A stretch of 64,000 bases of DNA from a virus: the IMG/VR virus record IMGVR_UViG_3300042013_000056, positions 1-64,000 of that record. The stretch is one strand, 5' to 3'. Under the pieces are notes generated by a model that did not search any database, was not told the origin of the DNA, and was given only the letters and a program-made list of their open reading frames with translations. Each line of letters begins with the position of its first letter. The first letter of the stretch is position 1. Positions 38,530 to 56,648 of this stretch are shown here, piece by piece. The position numbers and the translations under genes are program-made.

Positions 38530-38535
38530 AATTCC

Positions 38536-40285: not shown

Positions 40286-40361
40286 TTTGTAACCCTCAAT
40301 TCGTTTGGTGTGTTTGTATTCTATCAAACCCCCAGCCGATTGCAAGGGGTTTGATTCAATT

Positions 40362-40736
40362 TTACATATCTTTTTTGCGCTTCACGTCTTGAGCATATCC
40401 ACCGATGTGCAATGCTTCCCGTACTTGCCAGTTACCCAACGCGTAACCACTTTCAGCGGTCATGTAACCGTTTTGAATCAACCACTCGCCCCCGGTAACC
40501 AAATAATGGTTATCATGACCCGGACGCATATCGGCAAAGCCACCCAATTCTTGCCATTCGCCACCAACCAACGCCGACACATAAATTTTGTGGTAGCAGT
40601 TAGTCATAGAATCATACCACCGAACACCTTTGATCGATATTTCTTGAAAGTTGTCGCATTTCGCGGTCAATGCGGCGGTGACCATTTTAGGGCCGTCTTG
40701 AGTTTGAATGCGGTAGTCGATGGTTTTCATGATCAT
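40362..40736 (-). CDS. Hypothetical cassette protein
   Basis: Own promoter and SD. Confidence 0.7.
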   Translation of the reverse strand: MIMKTIDYRIQTQDGPKMVTAALTAKCDNFQEISIKGVRWYDSMTNCYHKIYVSALVGGEWQELGGFADMRPGHDNHYLVTGGEWLIQNGYMTAESGYALGNWQVREALHIGGYAQDVKRKKDM

Positions 40737-40768
40737 GTTCCTGTGGTTGGGTGTGGTTGTATTGTAGC

Positions 40769-40793
40769 GGGGTTGTCGGTTTGATACAACCCC
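40769..40793 (-). promoter_or_regulatory. Palindromic promoter; centre GGTTTGA on +
   Basis: GGGGTTGTC-GGTTTGA-TACAACCCC (1 mismatch). Confidence 0.8.
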
Positions 40794-40807
40794 TATTTCG
40801 ATTCTTT

Positions 40808-41251
40808 TTAGTAGCCCCAGCTTTCACGGGCGTAGCGGTCAAGGTCGCCCATCAATTCAGCTTTGGACTTGTACAGGGGGCCAACAGTGCGCGGCATGCC
40901 TTGCGGGTTCAATACGCTGTCATGAATGTCTACCACACGCCACAGGCCGTGGCCTTGATGCCAGTAGCCTAAACCAGCATAACGGGTTTTCATGATTTTA
41001 AACGTACTGGTGATATTTGCAGATGCTGGCACGGTTTCGGCCTTTTCAATTTCATACGTGAACAGGGTTTGCCCGTGGCTACCGCGAAACTCGGCACCGT
41101 CCTTTACATCAAACCAGCTATTAAAGTCGCTGACTTGCAACACGCCGTCATGAACACGAACATCATAATAACGCCCGTCGATATAGATACCGTTCCCGAT
41201 ATTCAAATGGGCGCGGATTTTGCGAGCTGCTGCGTTAGGTGTGAGTATCAT
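40808..41251 (-). CDS. Hypothetical cassette protein
   Basis: Own promoter and SD. Confidence 0.7.
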   Translation of the reverse strand: MILTPNAAARKIRAHLNIGNGIYIDGRYYDVRVHDGVLQVSDFNSWFDVKDGAEFRGSHGQTLFTYEIEKAETVPASANITSTFKIMKTRYAGLGYWHQGHGLWRVVDIHDSVLNPQGMPRTVGPLYKSKAELMGDLDRYARESWGY

Positions 41252-41331
41252 TTTCTAATTCCTTATGTCGGTTGGTGTAGGGTTATTCTATCAAACCACC
41301 CGAAAGAGTCAAGCGGTTTGATGTAATTATT

Positions 41332-41538
41332 TTACTGTTCTTTGATACTGGTAGTGTTGCCGTTCAACATGGCTATAACAAACACCGTGTTTAGATGTTT
41401 GATGATATACCTACGGTGTGCGCCTTTCTCACTTTCCCAGTCCTGCAAGTCCAACACCACACCATAGCGGCAAAGTTCTTTTTTGACGGCTTCCAGTTCG
41501 TTAGCCTGTATCGCTATCAGGATTTGCAATAGTGTCAT
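41332..41538 (-). CDS. Hypothetical cassette protein
   Basis: Start set at MTLLQ after GGGAG SD. Confidence 0.65.
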   Translation of the reverse strand: MTLLQILIAIQANELEAVKKELCRYGVVLDLQDWESEKGAHRRYIIKHLNTVFVIAMLNGNTTSIKEQ

Positions 41539-41609
41539 GTCGATAACTCCCGGTTGGTGTATGGGAATGATAGAACCCCCTGACAATGATGTCAAGGGGT
41601 TTGATAGAA

Positions 41610-41915
41610 TTATTTTGCGTTCAATTTGTCCAGCCGTTGCTGTTGACGGAACGCCGACAATTCTTTTTTCCAACGCTTGCAAAACCATTTGTTATATGTC
41701 TGCAATGCCTTGAACGCAATTTCAAAGTTTGCCGAATCACGCCGCCATTCCGGGCTTGCCTTGACGCTATCCGGGGTTAACCCCATTGGCCCTACCGGGT
41801 ACTTGTTCAAATCATTAGACGCAGCATCACAGGCCGCGTTTAGTTGATCTTGCTTAGCCTTTGCCTGTTCAAAAGACATAAGCGAATTACCGATTTCTTC
41901 TAGGGACATGAACAT
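41610..41915 (-). CDS. Hypothetical cassette protein
   Basis: GPMGLTPDSVK motif; start after SD. Confidence 0.7.
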   Translation of the reverse strand: MFMSLEEIGNSLMSFEQAKAKQDQLNAACDAASNDLNKYPVGPMGLTPDSVKASPEWRRDSANFEIAFKALQTYNKWFCKRWKKELSAFRQQQRLDKLNAK

Positions 41916-41990
41916 TTTGATAACTCCCGGTTGGTGTGGTTGTATTCTATCAAACCCCACGCCGATTGCAAGGGGTTTGATAAATTCTTT

Positions 41991-42296
41991 TTACTTGACC
42001 AGACCCGCCGCCATGCAAGCCTTTGCCCAGTAGCGTTGGGAACGTGCATCCTTGCCGGGGTGAATCGCTTTAATGGTGTGGCTACCGTCCGTGTGTAGCT
42101 CGCCTTCGGTAGACAGCCAATCCGGTGTGCCGGGGTAGCAATTCGACTGTGTGAAGCCTTCGCGGTCGATATAGTCCACCAGTTCGCGGAAACCATAATC
42201 AACATCTTCAAATTCAAAACCGCGTTCATCAGTTTCGCCCGCTTCTATTGCTTCTTGCGACCATTCCTCATACGTTACGGAAATTTTGATACCCAT
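41991..42296 (-). CDS. Conserved hypothetical cassette protein
   Basis: TYE.WS.E..E.GETDERGF. Confidence 0.7.
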   Translation of the reverse strand: MGIKISVTYEEWSQEAIEAGETDERGFEFEDVDYGFRELVDYIDREGFTQSNCYPGTPDWLSTEGELHTDGSHTIKAIHPGKDARSQRYWAKACMAAGLVK

Positions 42297-42376
42297 GATA
42301 CAAACCCCTGTTTTCGTTGGTGTGCCGGTATTCTATCAAACCGCCTGATAGTGTCAAGCGGTTTGATAAATTCTTT

Positions 42377-42703
42377 TTAGTCCGTCCGCTTGCCGATTGT
42401 TCGGGCGACGATAGCCACAAATTCCTCATACTCGGCCTTTGCAGCCTCATCACACGCCAGCCATTCACCGAAGTTCGGGGATTGGATCATTACGATATCT
42501 TCGCGGCTGTCAACCCCTTTCGGAATCAAATGCTGTTCATAGCTCGCCACACTGCCGACCGAATGAATCCGAAAGATAAACGCCCGGTAACCGAATATAA
42601 TCGATTGGTCAAGCGTATGCATGGTGAACTTGTATTTAAATTTCTTGCCGCCGTTCTTGACCAGTGCGGCAACAAACGCTTTTGTCATTGGATGTTGTTT
42701 CAT
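42377..42703 (-). CDS. Hypothetical cassette protein
   Basis: Start set at MKQHP. Confidence 0.65.
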   Translation of the reverse strand: MKQHPMTKAFVAALVKNGGKKFKYKFTMHTLDQSIIFGYRAFIFRIHSVGSVASYEQHLIPKGVDSREDIVMIQSPNFGEWLACDEAAKAEYEEFVAIVARTIGKRTD

Positions 42704-42811
42704 GTTGTAGCCCCTTTCCGGTTGGTGTGTGGTCATTATGGGGCTATATCAAACCCCTGTCAACAGGTTTGATACAAATATTTTGAGCAACAAAAAAGCC
42801 CCGAAGGGCTT

Positions 42812-43021
42812 TTAGTTGATACCTTGCAACTCCCGCCAGATGTCGCCCAACCGCTGTTCAACATCTTGAATCGATATGTAACCCTGTAGCTCGCTTTCCC
42901 CTGTAAATTTAGGGCTTGCCAGATACGCCCGGAACGCTTGCAGGCTGTCATCTGCTAGGTTAATGCGGCTGGTAAGGTTGTCTATCTCGACTTGCTTGGC
43001 GTTGACTGTAGGCATTTTCAA
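42812..43021 (-). CDS. Hypothetical cassette protein
   Basis: Promoter and terminator flanks. Confidence 0.65.
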   Translation of the reverse strand: MKMPTVNAKQVEIDNLTSRINLADDSLQAFRAYLASPKFTGESELQGYISIQDVEQRLGDIWRELQGIN

Positions 43022-43094
43022 ACCCCTGTTTTGGTTGGTGTGGGGTCATTATGATGCAACATCGAACGCACGTCAAGCGGTTTGATGCAATTAA

Positions 43095-43310
43095 TTAAGC
43101 AGCCATAGCCGCCGCTTCGGCTGCAAAACGCTTTAGACGGGCTTTGCAGTTACGCCACGACCTACGGTCACTAGGCGTTGAACTGGTAAACACTGGTTTA
43201 GTTCCCGGCATGAAAAATTTTAGGTGTTTGCCGTTTGTTTGTTCTATACCCCAACCCAAACCCTTTGCATAGTCCACTAGGTCGCGCATATCACCATTTT
43301 TAATGTTCAT
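43095..43310 (-). CDS. HicA-like toxin-fold protein
   Basis: GW.IE.T.GKH.KF..PG......STPSD.R motif. Confidence 0.7.
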   Translation of the reverse strand: MNIKNGDMRDLVDYAKGLGWGIEQTNGKHLKFFMPGTKPVFTSSTPSDRRSWRNCKARLKRFAAEAAAMAA

Positions 43311-43373
43311 ATCAAACCCTTATGTTTTATTGATAATAGATTGTTGCATTGAAACAAAATAAAGTCAAGCGGT

Positions 43374-43724
43374 TCAAGCGGTTTTGATTTCGTGTATCAG
43401 TTCCAGAACTTGCGGGCATTCTGACAGTTCATCACCTAACCGCAAGTGTTTAAAGTCCTTTGATGCAACCCGGTACAGGTGTCGGAATAATCCGCTGTTG
43501 ATGTAGTCCGGGTGTGAGTATGCAGCAACCACCCGACCCAATTTGCTGCTATGGCTAGCCACAAGCAACACAGCGACCGAACGCCCGTGAACCTGATAGA
43601 CATATCGGTTTGAGCCGTTGAACGTCTTAAACAGCGTTACAGACGGCCCAACCAAATAGCCGGTTTCCTTATCGGTGATGGTTGGGCATTGGTTACAGGG
43701 TGCAAGTAGACTATCCATAACCAA
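43374..43724 (-). CDS. Hypothetical protein
   Basis: ORF in array. Confidence 0.55.
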   Translation of the reverse strand: MVMDSLLAPCNQCPTITDKETGYLVGPSVTLFKTFNGSNRYVYQVHGRSVAVLLVASHSSKLGRVVAAYSHPDYINSGLFRHLYRVASKDFKHLRLGDELSECPQVLELIHEIKTA

Positions 43725-43734
43725 CCCCTATCGA

Positions 43735-44148
43735 TTAGACCGATTTGATAATTTCTGCGTTCTTTTCATACCATGCCAACATTTTTTGCAGGGCTTCGGC
43801 TGGTGTCTTGCCTTTGATCTTGCGGAATTTCAAACCAGCGTTACGCAAGTGATGCGACCATGATAACAATTCAATGTCAAATGAATTTGCGACGTTGTGT
43901 TGACTGTTACCATTCAAGTGCATCATGAAACGCATTTGACCGGTTGCATTCAACAGGATACCGCTTGCGCATTCGGATTTGTCCGCGACGTTGTAAAAAT
44001 CAATTACCACATTGTCACCCAAACTTTTGTAAGGGCGGGCTTTTGCCAGAAAGGTCGGGAACAGTTGTTTTATGCCAGTGTTAAAGGCTTCGCAACCTTC
44101 GGCGGCGTTGGCTACTGCATCTTGAATCAATTGGATTTGAGTTTTCAT
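43735..44148 (-). CDS. Hypothetical cassette protein
   Basis: Own palindromic promoter. Confidence 0.75.
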   Translation of the reverse strand: MKTQIQLIQDAVANAAEGCEAFNTGIKQLFPTFLAKARPYKSLGDNVVIDFYNVADKSECASGILLNATGQMRFMMHLNGNSQHNVANSFDIELLSWSHHLRNAGLKFRKIKGKTPAEALQKMLAWYEKNAEIIKSV

Positions 44149-44185
44149 GTTCCGGCTTCCTGTGGTTGGTATGGGTTAGTGTAGC

Positions 44186-44210
44186 GGGGTTGTAGGTTTG
44201 ATACAACCCC
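44186..44210 (-). promoter_or_regulatory. Palindromic promoter; centre GGTTTGA on +
   Basis: GGGGTTGTA-GGTTTGA-TACAACCCC. Confidence 0.85.
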
Positions 44211-44225
44211 CTTTAGCAATTTATT

Positions 44226-44546
44226 TTAGTACCGGGTTACTTTGTCCGGGTTGTCTTTAATCCATTGTTGCAACCGGGCCTGACCTTCGGCTTCTGATTC
44301 TTTAATCAGTTCCGACACCTTATGCGGGAACCAATACGCTTCGCAATCCATATAGATAAACCGGTCATACTTCGACAAATCGTTGGTTGTGTCAAACCCG
44401 ATAATTTCACGACCGGGGAAAATAACCCCGTAATCGTTGATGAATGTAACGATGTCACCGACCTTTAGGTCACACCCTACCGGGGCTTCTTGATCCAGTT
44501 TGGCGGCGAATGCTTCGATGTCGCCGTGGCCTGTACGATTTTTCAT
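44226..44546 (-). CDS. Conserved hypothetical cassette protein
   Basis: VGD.V.F.NDYGV.F...IIGF...YWFP. Confidence 0.75.
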   Translation of the reverse strand: MKNRTGHGDIEAFAAKLDQEAPVGCDLKVGDIVTFINDYGVIFPGREIIGFDTTNDLSKYDRFIYMDCEAYWFPHKVSELIKESEAEGQARLQQWIKDNPDKVTRY

Positions 44547-44583
44547 GATTTCGGTTCCTGTGGTTGATGTTGGGTAGTGTAGC

Positions 44584-44608
44584 GGGGTTGTAGGTTTGAT
44601 ACAACCCC
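44584..44608 (-). promoter_or_regulatory. Palindromic promoter; centre GGTTTGA on +
   Basis: Same 25-mer as 44186. Confidence 0.85.
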
Positions 44609-44616
44609 TATTTTGA

Positions 44617-44991
44617 TTATTCGGTGAAATAATCCCGGCTCAAACTGTGCGACCCGAATTCAACGTGTGGAACCTTCAAATCAATGTCATAATCGAACAA
44701 CCCGACACCGTGGCCCATTGCTTGCATGGCTGCATAATGGCCCCATTCTTGCGCCTTGAGTTCGTTGGTAGCGTTGTTGCTTTCGTACAAGCTTGCAACC
44801 GGCATGCCGTGCATCAGTTCGAGCTGAAAAGTCAGGGTATCAGCCGCATGCAACGCCGCCGAATCGATCACAGCGGGCAATTGATCCATGATTTCGCCGT
44901 GCAATGATTGGCCGCAATCGTCTGCCATGTCAGCATAAGCCGAACCGAAAAACGCTAGTGCCATGCCTTTCTTGATTTGTTCTTGAGACAT
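44617..44991 (-). CDS. Hypothetical cassette protein
   Basis: Start set at MSQEQ after AGGAG SD. Confidence 0.7.
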   Translation of the reverse strand: MSQEQIKKGMALAFFGSAYADMADDCGQSLHGEIMDQLPAVIDSAALHAADTLTFQLELMHGMPVASLYESNNATNELKAQEWGHYAAMQAMGHGVGLFDYDIDLKVPHVEFGSHSLSRDYFTE

Positions 44992-45107
44992 TTTTGTAAC
45001 TCCTGATTTGGTTGGTGTGTAGAGATTATGGGCTTGATTGATATGGCTGTCAACAGGTTTGATACAAATATTTTTAGATATGAAAAAGCCCCGGTTAAGG
45101 GGCTTCT

Positions 45108-45305
45108 TTACTTGACAAGCTCTAAATCCGCTTGGTTCCAATACTTGCAGCCGCGCAAATCTTGATCTAACCAAACTTCGCCGTCTTTACCGTAACAGGC
45201 CCGGATATTCGCCTGATGGTTGTCTTCCCGACCATCCGGGCAACCGTCCCAACTTGCCAACACATCCGGCTTTAGTTGTACGGTGTCGCCTTTCTTGAGT
45301 GACAT
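45108..45305 (-). CDS. Hypothetical protein
   Basis: SD plus terminator. Confidence 0.65.
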   Translation of the reverse strand: MSLKKGDTVQLKPDVLASWDGCPDGREDNHQANIRACYGKDGEVWLDQDLRGCKYWNQADLELVK

Positions 45306-45315
45306 GATTAACCCC

Positions 45316-45567
45316 TTAAACGTCGTTGGTAACCCAATTATCTTTCATGTGGAAAGATTCGCCGTTATCGAAACGCACGCTCAATTCATAACCCGGTTTG
45401 AACGTGTGAGTTACTTCGCCTTTCATGCCAACCGAAAGCTTTTTCAGGAAGCTATCACTTGGATAGTTAGGGGTCACACACGACCGGTTTGAGCTGTGCA
45501 TTGTATCGATGTTGGTTTGGGTTAGAACTACACGATCACCAACTTCGCGATGTACTGGCATGACCAT
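45316..45567 (-). CDS. Hypothetical cassette protein
   Basis: Own promoter. Confidence 0.65.
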   Translation of the reverse strand: MVMPVHREVGDRVVLTQTNIDTMHSSNRSCVTPNYPSDSFLKKLSVGMKGEVTHTFKPGYELSVRFDNGESFHMKDNWVTNDV

Positions 45568-45659
45568 TTTTGTATCTCCGGTTTAGAAGGCGTTTTGCCT
45601 TTCGATGTGGTTATTCTAACAGGTTGATTGAATGCGTCAAGCGGTTTGATAGAAATATT

Positions 45660-45959
45660 TCAAAATTTTTGAATCGGGCTTACCAGTTCGTCAACTAACC
45701 GGCGATCATTGGGTAACAGGTCGCCGGGGATAGCCCATTGGCCGTTGATGCGTTCCAGCTTGATAACCCGACCGGATGGCAGTCGAAACGTCGTCAAGGC
45801 GTCTGTAGGCTGTTCAGGACGGCATTTCGCACCGTCGTACAGTTCATCTGCCAGATACTGCGCACGTTTGACACATTGGGATTCTGTAAGGTGTAGGGCT
45901 TGTACTCTTTCCATCATACCGAAAGGCGTATCGGTCAAGGCAAACAGTGTATACAACAT
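45660..45959 (-). CDS. Hypothetical protein
   Basis: Coupled ORF. Confidence 0.6.
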   Translation of the reverse strand: MLYTLFALTDTPFGMMERVQALHLTESQCVKRAQYLADELYDGAKCRPEQPTDALTTFRLPSGRVIKLERINGQWAIPGDLLPNDRRLVDELVSPIQKF

Positions 45960-46204
45960 TACAAACCCCCCAAATCAGCATTGATACCGAAAATATCAAC
46001 GTCTTTAACATCAGTAAAATCAAGGGCCATGCATTTAGCCATGTAATCATCAGGCCCGCGGCGACCAATATTAAAAACATTACCCATATAATAAGCGATA
46101 ATTTCGTCCTCAGTTCCATTGATTTCGGTGTTAGTGGTAAATTCTTTACCATCTTCACCTTTCCACGTTAATTTTATGGTACGGCGGCGGGCTACTTGTG
46201 ACAT
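45959..46204 (-). CDS. Hypothetical cassette protein
   Basis: T.INGT..EI..YY.GN.FNIG motif. Confidence 0.7.
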   Translation of the reverse strand: MSQVARRRTIKLTWKGEDGKEFTTNTEINGTEDEIIAYYMGNVFNIGRRGPDDYMAKCMALDFTDVKDVDIFGINADLGGL

Positions 46205-46324
46205 GTTGGCGGTTCCTTGTGTTGTTTGGCTTTCTTGTGGTTATTCTAGCAGGTGGTTTGATATAGTCAAGGGTTTGATACAAATATTTTTAGGCGACAA
46301 AAAGCCCCATAACGGGGCTTCTTA

Positions 46325-46543
46325 TCAGTACATTGCTTGCTGGGTCAATTCGTTGACCACGGTTTTTGCAGTGTGTTCACTCAGACCGGCACGTTGGCAC
46401 ACATCATTGGCGTCTAGAACCATCCAGCGCCCCGACATGACGTTAAATTCAGCCCGGTAGGCCATGGGCTGGCTTGTGGTTGGTGTGGCTTGTACGGCGT
46501 TTAGCGGGATTACGTGGAACATTGCATTACCCCCAATTAACAC
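46325..46543 (-). CDS. Hypothetical protein
   Basis: Terminator downstream. Confidence 0.55.
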   Translation of the reverse strand: MLIGGNAMFHVIPLNAVQATPTTSQPMAYRAEFNVMSGRWMVLDANDVCQRAGLSEHTAKTVVNELTQQAMY

Positions 46544-46588
46544 AAAAAGCGGCCTATGCTAGCATATCACAGGCCGTTGTCAAATCCT

Positions 46589-46894
46589 TTACAGATGGCA
46601 GTCCAACCCGGTCGCGGCTGTAAATTCAGATTGCAACATGTCGGCATAGTTGCCTTCTGACTTGTGAACCAATTTCAGGTTAACGCCGTGAAAGTTGTAA
46701 AATTCAATGTCGTACAGGTCAGCCGGTGTCAAGATAATTTTCACCAAATTGATTTTATCTTTCGCAAAATTGGACGGTAGTTTGAACTGTAGGAAATTTT
46801 CACCACCTACAAACTGTTTCGCGCCAGTCATTGCGATAAACTTGTTACCGCCGATTTGTTCTAGGATGGTATTTGCTACGGTCAGATTCGACAT
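46589..46894 (-). CDS. Conserved phage hypothetical protein
   Basis: ANTILEQIGGNKFIAMTGAK...DLYDIEF...Y.D.L...F...TGL. Confidence 0.8.
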   Translation of the reverse strand: MSNLTVANTILEQIGGNKFIAMTGAKQFVGGENFLQFKLPSNFAKDKINLVKIILTPADLYDIEFYNFHGVNLKLVHKSEGNYADMLQSEFTAATGLDCHL

Positions 46895-46921
46895 TTTGAA
46901 AACCCTTGTTTCGGTTGGTGT

Positions 46922-46960
46922 GGTTGCAGTTTAACACCTTTGTATCAAACTGCAACCCCT
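46922..46960 (-). promoter_or_regulatory. Variant palindromic promoter (11-bp arms, 14-nt centre)
   Basis: GGTTGCAGTTT-AACACCTTTGTATC-AAACTGCAACC. Confidence 0.7.
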
Positions 46961-46968
46961 TTTCGAAA

Positions 46969-47430
46969 TTAAATATTCAGTTCCAACCCTTTGCGAATCA
47001 ATTCAATGGTAAGGGTTACCGCTTTTTCTTGTGCTTCTTTAAAACCCTTCGCGGTAAACTTTTGTTCTTTTACATCCTCACCATATTGACCACCTTTAAC
47101 GCACAATGTCCATGATTCACTTGACTTATAACGGGAAATTGCCAAATGGTTGTTATATGGGCTGGTGTCCTCATGCAAACCATTGATCAGGTAAACGATT
47201 TGTTTGGACTCACAAAACAAATCTTTCATCCAGTCAGCGGCTATCAAAAATTCGCATGCTTGTACAGCATCAAAAATTTTATACGAATAATCTGCATCAT
47301 CTGTAGATGTTGCATTTTCCACTGCATCATCTATTTCATCATCAAGTTTGGACAGGATAGCCAACGCCAACTGATTATCATCAGTTAGTGCCTTGTGTTC
47401 CAGTTGGGACAAACTTAGTTGATTAATCAT
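46969..47430 (-). CDS. Hypothetical cassette protein
   Basis: Own promoter. Confidence 0.7.
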   Translation of the reverse strand: MINQLSLSQLEHKALTDDNQLALAILSKLDDEIDDAVENATSTDDADYSYKIFDAVQACEFLIAADWMKDLFCESKQIVYLINGLHEDTSPYNNHLAISRYKSSESWTLCVKGGQYGEDVKEQKFTAKGFKEAQEKAVTLTIELIRKGLELNI

Positions 47431-47469
47431 GATTCAAATTCCTTTCAGTGGGTGTATGAGCATTGTATA

Positions 47470-47494
47470 GGGGTTGTATCAAACCTACAACCCC
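47470..47494 (-). promoter_or_regulatory. Palindromic promoter; centre inverted (TCAAACC on +)
   Basis: GGGGTTGTA-TCAAACC-TACAACCCC. Confidence 0.85.
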
Positions 47495-47502
47495 TATCGA
47501 AA

Positions 47503-47754
47503 TTAAATTTTACCGAACAGCCACAGGCTTTCCGGGGCTTGCGACGGTGTGAAGCGATACAGCCTCACATAACCATCAGCCATAACCACTATAAACACCA
47601 CGCTAGCCACGCGGGAATCTTCCAGAACGCGACGGGCTGCCATTCGGGCTTCGGCATACGTGGTTGTATATTCACCGTTGCCGACCTTTGCCAAATGGTC
47701 TAGTTCGAACAGTTCACGCAGTGGGGAAAGCTTGCTAGGAAGTTGGAAAGCCAT
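47503..47754 (-). CDS. Hypothetical cassette protein
   Basis: Start set at MAFQL. Confidence 0.65.
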   Translation of the reverse strand: MAFQLPSKLSPLRELFELDHLAKVGNGEYTTTYAEARMAARRVLEDSRVASVVFIVVMADGYVRLYRFTPSQAPESLWLFGKI

Positions 47755-47795
47755 TTTAAAATTCCTTGTTTCGGTTGGTGTATGAGCATTGTATA

Positions 47796-47820
47796 GGGGT
47801 TGTATCAAACATACAACCCC
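47796..47820 (-). promoter_or_regulatory. Palindromic promoter; centre inverted (TCAAACA on +)
   Basis: GGGGTTGTA-TCAAACA-TACAACCCC. Confidence 0.85.
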
Positions 47821-47831
47821 TATTTTTAAAA

Positions 47832-48035
47832 TTATGCATTCAACCGGTCGGCATAGCCGCTTGCATAATAATATGCGCCTAGGTTGCTTGGTTGAACACC
47901 AATCGGATTATCCAAATTGAACTTAGCCACACACGCAGCATGGCTCATACCGTTTAGGTCGGCCTGTGCAGCTTCCCAACCTTTCATGTAGTCCGGTTGA
48001 TGTTGGGTGTGGGTAACTGTGCGGGGTGTGTTCAT
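47832..48035 (-). CDS. Hypothetical cassette protein
   Basis: Own promoter. Confidence 0.65.
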   Translation of the reverse strand: MNTPRTVTHTQHQPDYMKGWEAAQADLNGMSHAACVAKFNLDNPIGVQPSNLGAYYYASGYADRLNA

Positions 48036-48076
48036 TTCAAAATTCCTTGTTTCGGTTGGTGTATGAGCATTGTATA

Positions 48077-48101
48077 GGGGTTGTATGTTTGATACAACCC
48101 C
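48077..48101 (-). promoter_or_regulatory. Palindromic promoter; centre TGTTTGA on +
   Basis: GGGGTTGTA-TGTTTGA-TACAACCCC. Confidence 0.85.
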
Positions 48102-48112
48102 CCAATCGAAAA

Positions 48113-48349
48113 TTATTTTACTTTCAATTTCCCGGTCAATCCCATGGATTTTAGGTGGTTGATAATCTGTTCCACTACATTAGATTTCGTTTCACCGTAG
48201 AAAACAACCGGCTCACCAATTAGTTCAGCAACGTTTGTTTTAATTACGATCAAATCGCATTCACCTTCAAACCACACACGACCGGTCTGGATGTCGTTTT
48301 GTTCGAAAACATAAGCAGTAGCAGCCACAGCTAGTTTGGGGAAATTCAT
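48113..48349 (-). CDS. Hypothetical cassette protein
   Basis: Own promoter. Confidence 0.65.
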   Translation of the reverse strand: MNFPKLAVAATAYVFEQNDIQTGRVWFEGECDLIVIKTNVAELIGEPVVFYGETKSNVVEQIINHLKSMGLTGKLKVK

Positions 48350-48389
48350 TTTTGTATCCTCTTTCTGGTTGGTGTGACTGCATTATAAA

Positions 48390-48414
48390 GGGGTTGTAGG
48401 TTTGATACAACCCC
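48390..48414 (-). promoter_or_regulatory. Palindromic promoter; centre GGTTTGA on +
   Basis: Same 25-mer as 44186. Confidence 0.85.
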
Positions 48415-48423
48415 TATTTTGAT

Positions 48424-48732
48424 TTAAATTTTGTCGAAAATTGCGCAGTTCGAGTAATTACCCAATACACGGGTTTTGTACTGTTCACCGTCAATCAACA
48501 CAATTTCACCATGTTGCAATGGGGTTTCAGAGTTCAGGCGGTCACGTTCGGCAACGTCGGCGGCTGTGTATTTGTCTTTCAGAACAGAACCGGTAGACAA
48601 GGCCCAATAGATGCCATCGCCAACTTTGTCATAGTCTTGTTTAAGGTGCGCAGTCATTACTCGACGGCCTGCATTCACGTTAAAGCTGTTGACTTGATCG
48701 AAAGAATCTGTAGCTAGGATCAGGGTTTTCAT
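48424..48732 (-). CDS. Hypothetical cassette protein
   Basis: Own promoter. Confidence 0.7.
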   Translation of the reverse strand: MKTLILATDSFDQVNSFNVNAGRRVMTAHLKQDYDKVGDGIYWALSTGSVLKDKYTAADVAERDRLNSETPLQHGEIVLIDGEQYKTRVLGNYSNCAIFDKI

Positions 48733-48811
48733 TTTTCTATTCCTTGTTTCGGTTGGTGTGTAGAGATTATGGGACTATATCAAACCCCTGTCAACAGGTT
48801 TGATACAAATA

Positions 48812-48916
48812 AATGAAAATAATTTCAGCCAGACATGGCATGGTGTATGCAGTGACAAAAATCATGCCAAGTCAAATCGCAGGCTCCTTCGGTGATTTCC
48901 TCCGAGCCGCCCCGGT
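48812..48916 (-). ncRNA. Candidate ~105-nt small RNA (or 16-aa micropeptide)
   Basis: TTGCAT-17-TATACT promoter (48923-48951), then two hairpins; no long ORF. Confidence 0.35.
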
Positions 48917-49015
48917 AACACCAGTATAATTCTATCAAACCAACAATGCAACCTTTGATACAAATATTTTTAGGCAATAAAAAACCCCAGCGGTCCGGGG
49001 CTTTGTGTGGGGGTA

Positions 49016-49198
49016 TCACACCCCCAAACGATACCGATAGACGTAATAAAGAATTTGACCAGCAAACACAATACAGCATACCAACACAGCCGCAACAAAC
49101 CAGACATTAGCCGTCGTCTGGTTACGGCTGTAACGGTTGATAGCGAACCACAGACAGATTAGCAGTAGAACGCCAACCGTAACACCCAGAGTAATCAT
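49016..49198 (-). CDS. Small membrane protein
   Basis: Two TM segments. Confidence 0.65.
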   Translation of the reverse strand: MITLGVTVGVLLLICLWFAINRYSRNQTTANVWFVAAVLVCCIVFAGQILYYVYRYRLGV

Positions 49199-49257
49199 AT
49201 GGCACCTGTTGATTAGTTAATAACCTATAGAACCATACAATCAATGGTGTGTCAAGG

Positions 49258-49464
49258 TTAAAGTTTATGCAGCTCTGTGCATTCGTATACGTGAACTGTG
49301 CAGCCGTTCGGCAACTGGTAATAGTTCATATTCCAGCGGATTGCATCAAACTCCTTTCCGTCATGTTCCAACAGATACGAGCGTTCATCATTTGAATAAT
49401 GACCATAGCGAAAGCCCGCTGTGGTCACCGTGTTGGATTTCAATTTGATTCGTACACGTTCCAC
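49258..49464 (-). CDS. Hypothetical protein
   Basis: ORF in array. Confidence 0.6.
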   Translation of the reverse strand: MERVRIKLKSNTVTTAGFRYGHYSNDERSYLLEHDGKEFDAIRWNMNYYQLPNGCTVHVYECTELHKL

Positions 49465-49665
49465 AATACACCCTCAAACAAAACTGTAAATGATTGCGAC
49501 AACACCACACACCAGAATAGCCAGAAACATCCATGTAATAACCGCCGCACCGTCGCGGTCCAATTCTTTTTCCACTTGAAATTCGTTCAATTCGTTCATG
49601 TTGTCACCTTCTTGGTATGATTTGATATAGGGTCATTCTACAGGCTTTTGGGCATAATGCAAGGG

Positions 49666-49887
49666 TTAGATTTGGTCCGGGGTCATATGGCATTCATTCA
49701 AATGTTTAGCCATTTCACCGTGTGTATGACCATGGCGGGCCAGCATCCCATCCGCCAACGATACCAAATGAAGATTAGATACCCCGGTGTTTGCCGGGTC
49801 ATACCCGATAATGTATTGTTCAGAGCCATTTTCAGACCATACACGCCGACCGGGTTTGATATCTGTAGCTTCCCATTCAAATTTCAT
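49666..49887 (-). CDS. Hypothetical protein
   Basis: Start set at MKFEW. Confidence 0.6.
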   Translation of the reverse strand: MKFEWEATDIKPGRRVWSENGSEQYIIGYDPANTGVSNLHLVSLADGMLARHGHTHGEMAKHLNECHMTPDQI

Positions 49888-50116
49888 TTTGAGCCTCGAC
49901 AGGTTTGATAGAGTTGATTGGTTTGATTGGGTTGCCCCAGTCGTCGTGCGTTTCACTGCCCCGATATGGGCTAGCCTTGATTGTGATAACCCGGCGAATT
50001 ACAACACCAGTACCACAACACAGGGCCACTACTGTTAAATGCCGGTCGGATTGTTCCACGTTCCATTCGGCGGCGGTATTCAACCGCAACTCACCTTTAC
50101 AGTTTGGACATTCCAT
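49877..50116 (-). CDS. Zinc-finger hypothetical protein
   Basis: CPNC...CCG. Confidence 0.6.
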   Translation of the reverse strand: MECPNCKGELRLNTAAEWNVEQSDRHLTVVALCCGTGVVIRRVITIKASPYRGSETHDDWGNPIKPINSIKPVEAQNEI

Positions 50117-50508
50117 TATTCATTACCCCAGACAGAACGCAAGCAACTAGCCAGCGACGGGAACTTATCACCGTCAAACTTTCCCTTTGTACCCTTGGGA
50201 CGGTAAAAGAATTGATTGTCAATCTGTTTCAGAACGTGGCCGATGGTCTTACCATCCAGCGTAATTGGCTCAACTACCACAAGCTTTGCATATGCCTTGA
50301 TATCAGCTTTCAGCTTACCCATGGTTGGGGCTTTCTTGCGGTCCCCATTGAACGCTACAGCCTGATATTCACGACGGGCGCGCAGGTATTGCACCTTGAA
50401 CACAACACCGCCACAAACGACTTCCACGACGTTCAGGCCGGTGCTAATGATACCCACAGTCAGTTCTGATAGTTCGAGTGGAGTATCCTGCTTTTCGTAA
50501 ATGATCAT
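50116..50508 (-). CDS. Hypothetical protein
   Basis: FFYRPKG...FPSLASCLRS. Confidence 0.65.
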   Translation of the reverse strand: MIIYEKQDTPLELSELTVGIISTGLNVVEVVCGGVVFKVQYLRARREYQAVAFNGDRKKAPTMGKLKADIKAYAKLVVVEPITLDGKTIGHVLKQIDNQFFYRPKGTKGKFDGDKFPSLASCLRSVWGNE

Positions 50509-50950
50509 TACACAGCCCCTGTATAGGTTGTTAGTTCAGATTCGCGGAATGTACCAGCATCACGGCCAGAATTTCCAAAGGTGCAAGAATAGAATCCAAA
50601 GTCATTAACGCTTTTGATGGTCATCCAAAAAACGCCACCCTTGGCTTGAACCGGGTCACCTTTGGAAAATTTGTTCGCTATCATGATTCAGTTCCTTGTT
50701 TCGGTTGGTGTATGGTCATTCTAGCACGCACACACCAACCGTCAAGGGGTTTGATAGAATTATTTTAGGTGGCGCTCCCAAATGTGAATAATGATACAGC
50801 CGTCCCGCATCTGCATCTTGTACCCGGCCCATTTATCCGACATGAAATTACCGGAAAAATCGTACACAACACCAACCCATTTAGACAGTCTCGCTAAATT
50901 CTTTTGTGCCTTACCAGCCGGGAGCGTGATGGTTCGCATGGTGTCACCTG

Positions 50951-51214
50951 TTAGGCTTGAACGCCAAAGTCATAGAACAGTTGATAATCGTTCTTTTCAA
51001 CCGCTGCAATTGCTTCAAGAATATACGACTGCATTTGCGTATGATCTTCTTCGCATGTCACCGCTTTAGCCCGAACGCGTGCTACAGCCTTTTCGTCTTT
51101 GGTGTCAGCGGTTGCCAGTTGAAACGACATCATATGATGTTTAACACCTTGACTGTTGATATACGAGATATCTACAAACGCCTTGATAAAGCCGGGGGTA
51201 TGGATCATTGGCAT
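50951..51214 (-). CDS. Hypothetical protein
   Basis: AGGAG SD. Confidence 0.6.
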   Translation of the reverse strand: MPMIHTPGFIKAFVDISYINSQGVKHHMMSFQLATADTKDEKAVARVRAKAVTCEEDHTQMQSYILEAIAAVEKNDYQLFYDFGVQA

Positions 51215-51226
51215 AGCGGTAACTCC

Positions 51227-51469
51227 TTATAGATAGTCATTGATGTAGCGGGCAAGCTCAGCCAATATAACGGTTTTTTCAGTGTTGTAGCACTGCATAA
51301 AGTCATTGGCAGAAAAAACGTATACAGCATGATTCAGTGGGTCTGATGGGATTTTGTACACATCCAACCGGATTTTCCGCCCACTTGGCGCAATCATTAC
51401 AGATTCTATAACCTTTTCAGCTTCGCGACCTTCAAGGCATGCGATCTTTTTGATTTCACCGATAGCCAT
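51227..51469 (-). CDS. Hypothetical protein
   Basis: After promoterless hairpin linker. Confidence 0.65.
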   Translation of the reverse strand: MAIGEIKKIACLEGREAEKVIESVMIAPSGRKIRLDVYKIPSDPLNHAVYVFSANDFMQCYNTEKTVILAELARYINDYL

Positions 51470-51535
51470 GATGTTAATTCCTTTTCGGTTGGTTTCTACT
51501 GACTCAGCCCCATTTAAGGGGCTTTGTCGTTTGGG

Positions 51536-51811
51536 TTATTCCGGGTTGCGGAATCCGTCCGAGTTTTCAGCTTCCAGTTCGGCAAGCGTTTTCAGCTTCG
51601 GTGCCGGGGCGTTGAAATCAATTTTCGTACCACCACAGCGATAATGGGTTACGGTCACTTCAAACCCGCCAGCATCGGGGAACCGTTCTTTAATGATGTT
51701 GAACAGGGCTTGTGCCTCATGTTCGCTAACCGCCGAGCGTGCATCTGTAGCGAACAAGTGACGGCCTTTATAGCTAACGTTGATTTCGTAATGCGATTGG
51801 ATGCCAGCCAT
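51536..51811 (-). CDS. Conserved hypothetical cassette protein
   Basis: YEINVS..GRH.FAT...FP...GF.VTVT. Confidence 0.75.
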   Translation of the reverse strand: MAGIQSHYEINVSYKGRHLFATDARSAVSEHEAQALFNIIKERFPDAGGFEVTVTHYRCGGTKIDFNAPAPKLKTLAELEAENSDGFRNPE

Positions 51812-51853
51812 GATATCGATTCCTTATTTCAGTTGGTGTAGGGATATTGTAGC

Positions 51854-51878
51854 GGGGTTGTATGTTTGATACAACCCC
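51854..51878 (-). promoter_or_regulatory. Palindromic promoter; centre TGTTTGA on +
   Basis: GGGGTTGTA-TGTTTGA-TACAACCCC. Confidence 0.85.
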
Positions 51879-51888
51879 TTTGATGAAA

Positions 51889-52143
51889 TTAATTTGGGAA
51901 CATGTAATAGCATGTATCTATGTAATATTCAATCCCATTCGTATCATCATGCACAAGGAAAACTTTGTTGGTGACTAGGCCGTGTTTGATTGCTTCTTGC
52001 TGGCATTCAGTCACCAGCGAATCAACGTAGTGTGTTGCAACCGAATCAGAGCATTCATTGACGGCGCGAATTAGGGTTATTGCATCTTGACGGCAAAGCG
52101 AGTTAACAGCGAATTTGCGGTCGGGGCTGGTCCAGTTCGACAT
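51889..52143 (-). CDS. Hypothetical cassette protein
   Basis: Own promoter. Confidence 0.65.
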   Translation of the reverse strand: MSNWTSPDRKFAVNSLCRQDAITLIRAVNECSDSVATHYVDSLVTECQQEAIKHGLVTNKVFLVHDDTNGIEYYIDTCYYMFPN

Positions 52144-52227
52144 TTTGAAATTCCTTGTTTGCGTGTTTCGGTTGGTGTGATTGAATGATAAAACCCCCTG
52201 ACAACCATGTCAAGGGGTTTGATAAAA

Positions 52228-52560
52228 TTATTCGTATCTGTCGTGGATTTTTGCCGCACCGTGCCACGATTCACAACCTGTCATTTTCCGCATCGCATCA
52301 GAGAACCGCGAATCACTGGTTGCCCCGAAGTTCCCGCCGAACATGTGCCAATTCTTGGACGTTGCCGGGTCTTCACACACGATATAGACCACGCCTTTAA
52401 CGGTTGGGTGATTGACCAGCCATGCCGCTGGGGCGTCCTCAGAAGGCTCTAGCGGGCCTTCAACGTTAACCAGCGTTAGACGGCTATACCGTGAAGATAC
52501 ACCGCCGTTAGTGCAATCGTAACCATCAGCGGAACGGTATACAGAGATTAGCAAGCCCAT
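52228..52560 (-). CDS. Conserved hypothetical protein
   Basis: DCTNGGVSS...MFGGNF..TSDSRF...IHDRYE. Confidence 0.8.
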   Translation of the reverse strand: MGLLISVYRSADGYDCTNGGVSSRYSRLTLVNVEGPLEPSEDAPAAWLVNHPTVKGVVYIVCEDPATSKNWHMFGGNFGATSDSRFSDAMRKMTGCESWHGAAKIHDRYE

Positions 52561-52624
52561 GATGTTAATTCCTTTTCGGTTGGTTGGTGTTTCTACTGAC
52601 TCAGCCCCATTTAAGGGGCTTTGT

Positions 52625-52894
52625 TTAATTCTTACTCAATTTATGCGTGCCTATCTGCACCTTGCCATCTTCAAGGATTTTTACGTCCTTGAGATAATCC
52701 CCGTCGATCTTGACCCATTCATTACCAGCACCGAAACTCATTTGCTTTTCAAGCCGTACCGATATGGGTTGAAATTTAATGCGGTAGACGGTCCCACTAG
52801 GCGCAACCACTTGCATATGCCCCCAGCGATCCGTAGCCCAGCCCAAACCCTCTAAGGCTAATTGCACCACTTCCAAATGAGATTTCTTTTTCAT
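52625..52894 (-). CDS. Hypothetical cassette protein
   Basis: GW..DRWGH.Q...YR.K.Q..SVR.EK. Confidence 0.7.
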   Translation of the reverse strand: MKKKSHLEVVQLALEGLGWATDRWGHMQVVAPSGTVYRIKFQPISVRLEKQMSFGAGNEWVKIDGDYLKDVKILEDGKVQIGTHKLSKN

Positions 52895-52934
52895 GGTTGT
52901 CTACCTGTTTCGGTTGGTGTATGAGCATTGTATA

Positions 52935-52959
52935 GGGGTTGTATCAAACCTACAACCCC
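52935..52959 (-). promoter_or_regulatory. Palindromic promoter; centre inverted (TCAAACC on +)
   Basis: Same 25-mer as 47470. Confidence 0.85.
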
Positions 52960-52968
52960 TATTTCGAT

Positions 52969-53292
52969 TTATTTTTGCTTGCGGTGTGCGTGTGCGACCT
53001 CATTAAAGAACCGCTTAGGGACTTTCTTATATTCTCGCCCATCAGCATCACAGAACCATTCCGGCAGTGTGCCGTTTTCACCGTCGCTCATGTATGCCCA
53101 TGCTCGGCGGTCGTCGTCATCGCGTACCAGAACGATATCCCACCGGCTGCCCTCGGTTGGTTCAGTCTTGGACATTGCCAACGCTTCTTTATACGTCCGT
53201 GAGTGCCAATGCTCTATAACATCATCTTTCGCGAATTCCGGTTGATCGATATCCGATACTTCTTCACAGTCCCACTCATATGCAACAGCCAT
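52969..53292 (-). CDS. Hypothetical protein
   Basis: ORF in array. Confidence 0.7.
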   Translation of the reverse strand: MAVAYEWDCEEVSDIDQPEFAKDDVIEHWHSRTYKEALAMSKTEPTEGSRWDIVLVRDDDDRRAWAYMSDGENGTLPEWFCDADGREYKKVPKRFFNEVAHAHRKQK

Positions 53293-53295
53293 GAT

Positions 53296-53679
53296 TTAAA
53301 CCCCTTTGATTGCTTGGATTTTGCCATCGGCAAAGTAAACCACGATATTGGACAACAGTTCGCCAATATCATCTTTTGTATTTGGTTCACGTACATAAAA
53401 ATCAATGATAGCCCGCCCATCGTCTGAGAGTTCCACACCTTTAGTGAATTCAGACCATTCAACCGGTGACCACAAATCGGTATCAGACCAGTCGTCAAGG
53501 TCTGCCAACCGAGTGACGCGGGCAATGTTGATATTGTTTTCCACACCTTGAACTTTGATGTTGACACGCTCGCCAACTTCGACTGTTACACGTTTTAGGC
53601 CAACTTCTTTGCGAGCCGCTTCACGTATTTGCTGGCATTCTTTGGTGCTAGGCTTCCAAACATTACCGATGATCGACAT
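53296..53679 (-). CDS. Hypothetical cassette protein
   Basis: Own promoter. Confidence 0.7.
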   Translation of the reverse strand: MSIIGNVWKPSTKECQQIREAARKEVGLKRVTVEVGERVNIKVQGVENNINIARVTRLADLDDWSDTDLWSPVEWSEFTKGVELSDDGRAIIDFYVREPNTKDDIGELLSNIVVYFADGKIQAIKGV

Positions 53680-53723
53680 TTCAAAATTCCTTGTTTCGGT
53701 TGGTGTGATAGCAGTATAGCAAA

Positions 53724-53745
53724 GGGGTTGGTTTGATACAACCCC
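53724..53745 (-). promoter_or_regulatory. Palindromic promoter variant with 3-nt deletion
   Basis: GGGGTTG-GTTTGA-TACAACCCC; TTGTAT-17-TATACT retained. Confidence 0.75.
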
Positions 53746-53757
53746 TATTTGATTAAA

Positions 53758-53976
53758 TTATTCAGCCAGAAACTTAGCATATGCGGCTTCACGTTTCGCC
53801 GTGCATATGTCGCGGGAATCGGTCAATTGAACTTTTTCAGCACAACCAGCGGAATAGCCAGCCTGAAACGCTTTAAAGCCATTCGGTTGGGCTTCTGGAT
53901 TGAATGGGTTTTCTTTATAGAACCCAAGCGAGCCAGCCCTATAAGCGTATTCAAAGATTTCCTTTTTGCTAGCCAT
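53758..53976 (-). CDS. Hypothetical cassette protein
   Basis: Own promoter. Confidence 0.65.
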   Translation of the reverse strand: MASKKEIFEYAYRAGSLGFYKENPFNPEAQPNGFKAFQAGYSAGCAEKVQLTDSRDICTAKREAAYAKFLAE

Positions 53977-54017
53977 TTCGTGAACCCCTGATTTGGTTGG
54001 TGTAGGGATATTGTAGC

Positions 54018-54042
54018 GGGGTTGTAGGTTTGATACAACCCC
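54018..54042 (-). promoter_or_regulatory. Palindromic promoter; centre GGTTTGA on +
   Basis: Same 25-mer as 44186. Confidence 0.85.
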
Positions 54043-54050
54043 TATTTGAT

Positions 54051-54270
54051 TTAAATTTTGTGTGGTGCGAACGTGATACCTTGGGCCTGACCTTCAAATC
54101 CCCGGCAAACCGCTTGGGCCTTGATTGCAGCAGCTTCAGCCAGTTCCAAAGTATCGAACTGCATAGCCAGCTTGACAGAGCCCATGCAAGCGGTTCCCCA
54201 AGTCGGGCACCATGCGTGCAAGTAATCAGAACCAAACTTGCCATACGTGCGTTTTATTACATAAGCCATG
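54051..54270 (-). CDS. Hypothetical cassette protein (start approximate)
   Basis: MAYVIKR after AAAGGA SD. Confidence 0.6.
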
Positions 54271-54307
54271 ATCAAATCCTTTTCCGTTGGTGTATGAGCA
54301 TTGTATA

Positions 54308-54332
54308 GGGGTTGTAGGTTTGATACAACCCC
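54308..54332 (-). promoter_or_regulatory. Palindromic promoter; centre GGTTTGA on +
   Basis: Same 25-mer as 44186. Confidence 0.85.
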
Positions 54333-54341
54333 TATTTTCAA

Positions 54342-54815
54342 TTATTTGTGTTTGGTCATGGCTTCGGTAAGGTCTGCAATCAGCTTGCGTTGTTGGCCAA
54401 TTTCCCATTCGATTTGGTCAACCACGTACACCGCTACGCCTTGTTCTTTGTTACCGTTGGTGACTTTGCGACCCATTGCCTTGGCTCTATGCAAATCATT
54501 GTAACGGGTGGCGTTTTCGATATTACCAATAACCGCTGTATCGGCCACGTTGTCAAACACAATCGGCATACGACCCGAACCGGTGACAATGATGTAACCT
54601 TTAGGGGCTGTTGCGTTGAACGCTTCCAGTCTAGCTATGTAAGCCTCAGAGTCAGTGATAGCGGTTTTAATGAATTGCAGGGCTTCTGGTTTGATTTGCA
54701 TGGTCTTGGCCTTCTGGTTGATGTGCTTGAGGCACAGGGCGAACGTGGCTGCATAGTTGTCACCGGCTTGAATGATTTCTTTCGTCATCTTGTGGGCTTG
54801 GGCAAATGCGTTCAT
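54342..54815 (-). CDS. Hypothetical cassette protein
   Basis: MN.F..AH..T...GD.Y.ATF..CL N-terminus. Confidence 0.75.
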   Translation of the reverse strand: MNAFAQAHKMTKEIIQAGDNYAATFALCLKHINQKAKTMQIKPEALQFIKTAITDSEAYIARLEAFNATAPKGYIIVTGSGRMPIVFDNVADTAVIGNIENATRYNDLHRAKAMGRKVTNGNKEQGVAVYVVDQIEWEIGQQRKLIADLTEAMTKHK

Positions 54816-55039
54816 GTTCGTGTTCCCTGTTTCGGTTGGTGTGTAGAGATTATGGGACTATATCAAACCCCTGTCAACAGGTTTGATACAAATATTTTAA
54901 ATTATTTTCATAGGCAATTGCCATGCCAACACTGATTTGCGGTCGTCAATCCATTTTCTCATATTTTTCGTGGTGCTGTCAACTACAACAAACAAAATAA
55001 AACCCGGCTGATTAGACCGGGTTTGGCATGGTGTTTGAT

Positions 55040-56646: not shown

Positions 56647-56648
56647 GC

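Follow-up and report, generated by a model that had tools for sequence, protein, structure and literature searches.

The first 64,000 nt of the 182,859-bp virus record IMGVR_UViG_3300042013_000056 (this whole stretch is referred to below as the window) carry twelve copies of a palindrome with a short asymmetric core, and at orthologous loci of closely related strains this core is repeatedly found inverted in place. The genome belongs to a 183-kb T4-like phage, as indicated by its PHROG matches to rIIA, DNA ligase, NrdA/NrdB and helicase, and its nearest named relatives are the Pseudomonas phages Milchi and Astolliot (48% amino-acid identity in rIIA). From their sequence and arrangement the twelve elements are best explained as a new, lineage-specific variant of the promoter-early stem-loop (PeSL) cassettes of T4-type phages, and the inversions are probably near-neutral micro-inversions mediated by the hairpin through template switching, with no programmed switch involved.

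A palindrome with an asymmetric core in twelve copies

Copies were sought with the pattern GGGGTTGTA-N7-TACAACCCC, allowing up to two mismatches, with 100 shuffled sequences as the control. The pattern matched 11 times in the window, always between 40.7 and 54.3 kb, and in 0 of 100 shuffles. A twelfth copy (53724–53745) has lost 3 nt of one arm, and the whole 182,859-bp record holds no palindrome copies outside these twelve. On the plus strand nine copies have GGTTTGA or TGTTTGA at the centre and three (47470, 47796 and 52935) have TCAAACC or TCAAACA, exactly the coordinates and the 9:3 split given by a model that had seen the letters of the window (the original prediction). The plausible genes between 40 and 55 kb are all small and all lie on the minus strand, and each of the twelve palindromes, read on that strand, fills one intergenic gap and is placed before a small gene. 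The centres predicted for the plus strand were correct; the strand of the genes and promoters had to be changed to minus, so that in the direction of transcription TCAAACC is the majority core and it is the minority of three that is flipped. The elements had also been described as promoter palindromes whose −10 is kept on flipping and whose −35-like hexamer TTGTAT can become TTGTAG, which agrees with our analysis (the −10 is unaltered and the hexamer changes in two of the three flipped copies), and the common flanks reported for two pairs of copies with opposite cores are real: 47796 and 48077 align without difference from palindrome to ATG except for the inverted core and 1 nt (an exact run of 38 nt plus the arm), and 52935 and 54308 have 23 nt plus the arm in common. 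The cassettes are as follows, with cores given on the coding strand.

40769–40793, minus strand: cassette 1, core TCAAACC, forward; one right-arm mismatch, giving an 8-bp arm; −10 TACAAT 2 nt downstream; ATG 40736; upstream stop ends at 40808
44186–44210, minus strand: cassette 2, core TCAAACC; 9-bp arms; −10 TACACT; ATG 44148; upstream stop 44226
44584–44608, minus strand: cassette 3, core TCAAACC; 9-bp arms; −10 TACACT; ATG 44546; upstream stop 44617
47470–47494, minus strand: cassette 4, flipped, core GGTTTGA; 12-bp arms; hexamer TTGTAG; −10 TACAAT; ATG 47430
47796–47820, minus strand: cassette 5, flipped, core TGTTTGA (alternatively 13-bp arms with a 5-nt loop, GTTTG); −10 TACAAT; ATG 47754
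48077–48101, minus strand: cassette 6, core TCAAACA, taken as a 5-nt loop between 10-bp arms; −10 TACAAT; ATG 48035
48390–48414, minus strand: cassette 7, core TCAAACC; −10 TATAAT; ATG 48349
51854–51878, minus strand: cassette 8, core TCAAACA; −10 TACAAT; ATG 51811
52935–52959, minus strand: cassette 9, flipped, core GGTTTGA; 12-bp arms; hexamer TTGTAG; −10 TACAAT; ATG 52894
53724–53745, minus strand: cassette 10, degenerate, right arm short of 3 nt (GGGGTTGTATCAAACC/AACCCC); ATG 53679
54018–54042, minus strand: cassette 11, core TCAAACC; 9-bp arms; −10 TACAAT; ATG 53976
54308–54332, minus strand: cassette 12, core TCAAACC; 12-bp arms; −10 TACAAT; ATG 54269

Inversion of the core at orthologous loci

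About 15 independent assemblies, retrieved by exact-protein look-ups, made up the strain panel; their sources are PRJNA327808 food metagenomes, the ERZ272818xx series and a single Logan run. When the queries were three neighbouring proteins as encoded in the window the look-ups returned no match; with the strain versions they succeeded. In the region of interest the assemblies are 93.8–96.9% identical to the window and 97.4–99.3% identical to each other. The state of each cassette was scored as F (forward, the majority orientation on the coding strand) or R (flipped), with the following results.

Locus 51854: window F; R in six assemblies (exact inverse TGTTTGA), 110 of the 110 flanking nt examined being identical
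Locus 54018: window F; R in four assemblies, deleted-arm type in two
Locus 47470: window R; F (TCAAACC) in ten assemblies
Locus 47796: window R; R in one assembly, F in five, deleted-arm type in two
48390-type cassette: window F; R in two assemblies (L039 and L046)
Locus 54308: window F; F in all relatives
Locus 44186: window F; F in all (four of the four related assemblies that cover it)
Locus 52935: window R; R in all related assemblies

Orientation is thus polymorphic at five of 11 orthologous loci (51854, 54018, 47470, 47796 and 48390), and the core has undergone recurrent micro-inversion in situ, of which locus 51854 is the cleanest case. The process is also seen in the two named relatives: at orthologous positions (163087 in Milchi, 162524 in Astolliot) the loops AATTGA and TCAATT are exact inversions of each other within 420 nt of 95% identity that run across both flanking genes, and a paralogous pair in Milchi has loops TCAAA and TTTGA with flanks in common. 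These flips in two isolate genomes, together with the recurrence of the same state in independent assemblies, led us to reject an assembly artefact, the more so because the 25–31-bp element is shorter than the assembly k-mers (127 and 141, from the contig names), each of which spans the element and unique flanks.

Within a lineage the orientation does not change, in up to 6–10 independent samples at loci 51854 and 47470, so that the state must be inherited and not scrambled. Between the window and assembly L038 four of nine shared cassettes differ at about 5% nucleotide divergence, and between L038 and L041, which are 99.3% identical, one cassette differs. Very roughly, then, a cassette flips at ten times the per-site substitution rate, which describes a hot spot and not a fast switch. 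L041 has four flipped and two forward cassettes and the window three flipped and eight forward; a rough balance of the two orientations across strains argues against strong selection on orientation. In the window all three flipped copies have 12–13-bp arms and most others have 8–10 bp; the idea that arm length predicts flipping was dropped, as loci with 9- and 10-bp arms (54018 and 51854) flip in the strain panel too.

Most of the orientation differences might instead have arisen by gene conversion between oppositely oriented paralogous cassettes after just one or two inversions, but this seems unlikely. Exchange of this kind is visible as hybrid cassettes and as swapped subtypes at orthologous loci: the deleted-arm type occurs at 54018 in L040 and L052 and at 47796 in L036 and L042, and the 47796 cassettes of L041 and L038 differ by orientation plus one base. 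At 51854, however, the difference is confined to the 7-nt core and the nearest donor cassettes have other flanks, the Milchi/Astolliot flip involves a loop present at just one of Astolliot's nine copies, and inversions are found in two separate phage lineages.

Predicted promoter anatomy and relation to PeSL cassettes

The order of parts in each gap that holds a palindrome is stop codon, A-rich tract, palindrome, −10, leader, ribosome-binding site and ATG. The upstream stop codon lies 8–15 nt ahead of the palindrome, the −10-like hexamer (TACAAT, TACACT, TATAAT or TATACT) starts 2 nt past it and the ATG follows 24–34 nt after the −10. A leader, ACACCAACC, is common to the cassettes between the −10 and the ribosome-binding site and occurs 19 times on the coding strand of positions 38000–57000 of the window, both in this promoter class and in a second one described below. 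TTGTAT lies in the left arm, in the window at a distance of exactly 17 nt from the downstream −10; overall the spacer measures 16–17 nt despite loops of 5, 6 or 7 nt. In Milchi and Astolliot a 6-nt loop goes with a 16-nt spacer and where the loop is 5 nt a longer linker brings back 17 nt; in the deleted-arm cassette 10, a form present in all relatives, the distance from TTGTAT to TATACT is likewise held at 17 nt by a longer linker. Retention of the spacing in the relatives' loops and in the deleted-arm copy supports spacing as a selected feature, and with the anatomy it leads us to predict that the twelve elements are sigma-70-type promoters with a hairpin built into the −35/spacer region.

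PeSLs have been described (Arbiol et al. 2010, PMC2839356; Comeau et al. 2014, PMC4122927) as cassettes of the T4-type phages RB49/phi1, T4/PST and KVP40/nt-1 that lie in hyperplastic regions and are proposed to mediate modular shuffling. They combine sigma-70-like boxes with an AT-rich tract, a ribosome-binding site and a stem-loop of the form GGGG...CCCC. The stem-loop may overlap the −35 or sit between the boxes, and for phi1 PeSLs promoter activity was measured and downstream expression was lowered by the stem-loop (PMC2839356). The cassettes of the window match at sequence level: they are found in a T4-like phage, one per gap in a hyperplastic early-gene region of small open reading frames (ORFs), with the parts in the same order, boxes about 17 nt apart that have an AT-rich tract before them and the ribosome-binding site and ATG after them, a stable stem-loop overlapping the −35/spacer, and a position at the borders of indels or replacements between close relatives. 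They differ in having a perfect 9–13-bp palindrome whose sequence is conserved over genus-level divergence, a weak −35 (TTGTAT) and a loop that is repeatedly inverted, loop inversion having no mention in the passages of PMC2839356 and PMC4122927 consulted here. Promoter and terminator activity were measured for phi1 PeSLs, whereas the present cassettes are known from sequence.

As with PeSLs, the cassettes mark places of rearrangement. Seven of the 22 ends of collinear blocks between Milchi and Astolliot lie at most 25 nt from a cassette, against 5% expected (P=8e-5). In L039 and L046 a cassette-to-cassette deletion has left a joint, lying within the shared leader, between the upstream flank plus palindrome of 48390 on one side and the gene that follows 47796 on the other; compared with window positions 47796–48414, two small ORFs are gone at this joint (5900–6000 in L039, 100–200 in L046). 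The hybrid cassettes of the strain assemblies have their junctions inside the palindrome and the −10 region. The cassettes are hot spots of recombination through homologous exchange between repeats, in the sense proposed for PeSLs, and not through site-specific recombination. Strain-level indel polymorphism was also seen within a single sample, ERZ27281805, which yielded two contigs, one with and one without one such ORF.

Flipping could not be demonstrated in the coliphage PeSLs: 44 of 45 perfect hairpins with orthologous flanks are identical between RB49 and phi1, the remaining one (ATT against AAT) is equally explained by a single substitution, and paralogous RB49/phi1 PeSLs are too few to judge.

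Folding of the palindrome

As RNA the palindromes fold at −14 to −20 kcal/mol (z −4.6 to −6.4) with stems of 9–13 bp. The same arms, GGGG(T/C)TGTA ... TACAACCCC on the plus strand, occur with different loops of 5–6 nt in the equivalent small-ORF region of Milchi (13 copies) and Astolliot (nine copies); nucleotide similarity to Milchi is confined to cassette 12 (80% over 160 nt). The motif has 0 copies in phage pf16, the next relative by rIIA, and exact-pattern scans of IMG/VR and JGI metagenomes brought no further lineages, returning just unrelated single hairpins and one Astolliot-like fragment. No Rfam family matched between 38 and 57 kb. Across the 34 copies of the three phages the loops vary and the arms are invariant bar one recurrent variant, an A to G change in the coding-strand right arm (TACAGCCCC) of 5/13 Milchi and 4/9 Astolliot copies, which leaves the sense strand paired, as G.U, and the antisense strand mismatched, as C.A. 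Loop length is 5, 6 or 7 nt (3–9 nt if arm extensions and mismatches are counted) and arm length 8–13 bp. A variant that preserves pairing as G.U and the variable loop and arm lengths favour a fold of the single sense strand over a duplex operator for a dimer. A separate mutation, which alters the first G of the left arm (ATAGGGG to ATATGGG), was noted at the 52935 locus in L038 and L041 and at the 44584 locus in L039; its presence at two loci in different strains could reflect gene conversion between cassettes or a recurrent change.

The operator deserves consideration all the same. The palindrome might bind a dimeric phage regulator, either a repressor by which these genes are shut off or an activator that replaces −35 recognition after AsiA has blocked sigma region 4, and the core would then be an uncontacted spacer between half-sites and therefore free to flip. 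Conservation of the arm sequence in three diverged phages is in keeping with this, as are the span of the palindrome (about −39 to −15) over a weak −35 and the presence of AsiA in a phage lacking MotA: an AsiA anti-sigma homologue is encoded outside the window (genome 102868–103089, minus strand; 57 bits, above the Pfam cut-off) and the MotA activation domain (PF09114) was not found at E<=1 in the whole genome. T4 MotA-dependent middle promoters resemble the cassettes in combining a sigma-70 −10 with a non-consensus element near −28 to −30 in a phage that encodes AsiA. They differ in that no MotA is detectable here, the palindrome has no TGCTT and is not a MotA box, and it is found solely before small ORFs of the hyperplastic region. 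Against an operator, the distance between half-sites varies by at least 2 bp, which dimeric DNA-binding proteins rarely tolerate, pairing in the recurrent arm variant is kept just on the sense strand, as G.U, and a candidate for the regulator was not identified. We therefore think an operator improbable.

A role on the opposite strand, in which the hairpins would be intrinsic terminators and keep antisense transcription (plus-strand, late-direction) out of the early-gene array, has if anything a lower probability. The plus-strand stems are followed by a T-rich tail such as TATTTTGATTT, a consensus scan calls seven of the 12 copies as plus-strand terminators and the antisense hairpin reaches −15.2 kcal/mol, but the same A/T-rich tract would suit an upstream element of the sense promoter, the T-runs are interrupted, the C variant of Milchi and Astolliot makes a C.A mismatch on that strand and there is no plus-strand gene just upstream of the array.

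Mechanism of inversion

T4-like phages replicate through recombination-dependent synthesis, which should favour template-switch events. We infer the following role for the hairpin. Transcripts that read through from upstream cassettes would form a stable hairpin at the repeat, and by analogy with the tested PeSLs this hairpin may attenuate transcription or stabilise the transcript end. The 5–7-nt loop would be a non-essential part of the promoter. During replication or recombination-dependent synthesis the perfect arms would permit the loop to be swapped for its own reverse complement, either by an intramolecular template switch or, equally well, by exchange within the stem. The same process would keep the arms perfect. 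Flips of this sort would be heritable, infrequent and largely neutral, and might be spread further by gene conversion between cassettes.

Template switching between short inverted repeats inverts the spacer and homogenises the arms (PMC8604942, PMC8794818), and hairpin loop inversions are recurrent in chloroplast DNA (PMC6005162, where Kelchner and Wendel 1996 is the study cited for hairpin-loop micro-inversions). The inversions of the window resemble these in that an exact loop is inverted between short perfect repeats, recurrently among close relatives and with unaltered flanks, and probably in that no dedicated enzyme is involved and that the arms are kept perfectly paired by the same process. 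The earlier cases were described in non-coding DNA of chloroplasts, in yeast and in other cellular genomes; those of the phage lie inside repeated promoter cassettes, where they also alter the promoter spacer and one base of the −35-like hexamer.

Several points weigh against a neutral loop in a promoter hairpin. Neutrality is deduced from the tolerance of both states, and some of the state changes between strains are cassette conversions and not in-situ flips. TTGTAT matches TTGACA at only 3/6 positions while promoters with a consensus TTGACA occur in the same region, so that the palindromic class could depend on a further factor, for which the weak −35 and the presence of AsiA without MotA may leave room. 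The sense strand lacks a U-run after the hairpin, so that a terminator role would be weak. None of 16 TTNNGG-type loops in Milchi and Astolliot was seen inverted, which hints at a constraint on orientation. Finally, the core with its flanking TA forms a 9-mer, TATCAAACC, that is present 53 times in the genome where about 2 copies would be expected (approximately 25-fold) and is also found just upstream of the −35 in about 18 consensus promoters; from its enrichment and this position, the loop may not be functionally empty in the present phage.

The 9-mer and a second promoter class

Of the 53 copies of the 9-mer, 37 fall in 19 kb of the window (38000–57000), 26 on the coding strand and 11 on the other. 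If a factor reads the box, flips would re-orient or reposition its site and micro-inversion would be a heritable, reversible re-tuning of single early genes, with strains sampling the settings; we regard the chance of this as slim. The loops of Milchi and Astolliot are unrelated to the 9-mer, which implies that the box is not needed for the palindromic class in general.

The consensus promoters form a second class of about 18 members on the minus strand (window 38100–56600; examples at 54877, 52213, 48794, 46270, 45053, 42763, 42357, 41595 and 41312). They have TTGAC(A/G/T), a 16–17-nt spacer and TAGAAT, CATAAT or TATCAT, and are preceded by AAATATTTG or AAATAATTC and the box. Many repeat the box in the spacer, inverted or direct, and an inverted copy gives a hairpin with TATCAAACC ... 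GGTTTGATA arms whose loop holds the −35, TTGACA. At orthologous loci these arms show compensatory changes between strains (cc/gg to gc/gc), and there were 0 flips in 27 instances. The contrast with the palindromic class fits survival of only those flips that spare essential promoter parts, although as a control the second class is imperfect since its longer loops could also lower the flip rate.

Several consensus promoters have a GC-rich hairpin with a T-run (for example AGCCCC-N6-GGGGCT) just upstream. Hairpin followed by consensus promoter is a separate terminator-then-promoter arrangement, as in classical PeSLs. The conventional GC-rich hairpins of the window are these.

42794–42813: GC-rich hairpin
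45086–45105: GC-rich hairpin
51506–51523: GC-rich hairpin
52603–52620: GC-rich hairpin
55000–55024: GC-rich hairpin

Site-specific recombination and programmed switching

The original prediction had offered a tyrosine-recombinase core or a programmed switch for each gene, with neutral micro-inversion by template switching at a hairpin as the fallback. Neither the core nor the switch is supported, and it is the fallback that fits best. Inverted arms around a 6–8-bp asymmetric spacer are the layout of loxP, FRT and dif. Recombination at a lox-type site cannot invert its own spacer, however; two-site recombination inverts the DNA between the sites. The arms and loops here also vary in length, and the absence of a recombinase that had been noted for the window extends to the whole genome, where neither PF00589 (Phage_integrase) nor PF00239 (Resolvase) was found at E<=1. 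Invertible promoter switches (fimS, hin and the invertons) are similar in that a promoter-adjacent inversion differs between strains, but invertons flip hundreds of bp carrying the whole promoter by means of an invertase, whereas here the flip is confined to 5–7 bp and leaves the −10 and five of the six −35 bases in position, in a phage that encodes no invertase.

A programmed micro-invertible switch, in which the arms are recombinase-binding sites and a phage or host enzyme often flips the core to tune each gene, is for these reasons very improbable: it would suit the recombinase-like geometry (9–13-bp arms around a 5–7-bp asymmetric core), the variation among strains at five of the 11 loci and the changed last base of the −35-like hexamer in some copies, but not the lack of a tyrosine or serine recombinase domain in 183 kb, a single-site spacer that site-specific recombination cannot invert, orientations that are inherited unchanged through the independent assemblies of a lineage, the tolerance of both orientations at the same locus, or loops that vary freely in length and sequence, and are unrelated, among relatives. 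Comparison of orthologous loci across relatives shows the core inverting in situ, and the loci are not fixed in all relatives, given that core orientation differs among them.

Nothing in these results suggests a new recombination system; they are best read as an established mutational process at work within an established kind of phage regulatory cassette. They extend PeSL cassettes to a T4-like lineage related to Pseudomonas phages and provide a clean natural case in which mutational hot spots are formed by short hairpins in the regulatory DNA of a phage. Near-identical strains that have one promoter in both core orientations at the same locus amount to a ready-made experiment on spacer sequence and the last −35 base. 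A flipped loop, being one event, should not be counted as five to seven substitutions when genomes are compared.

Other features of the record

The last 127 nt of the record (genome 182733–182859) do not repeat its first 127 nt but window positions 1175–1301, which lie within the helicase ORF. The repeat has the look of an overlap in the assembly of a circularly permuted genome whose first 1.2 kb is odd. A 347-amino-acid ORF on the minus strand (window 25010–26053) contains five repeated stretches matching tail-fibre PHROGs, and a tail-fibre- or tail-spike-like ORF adjoins it on the plus strand (26161–28038).

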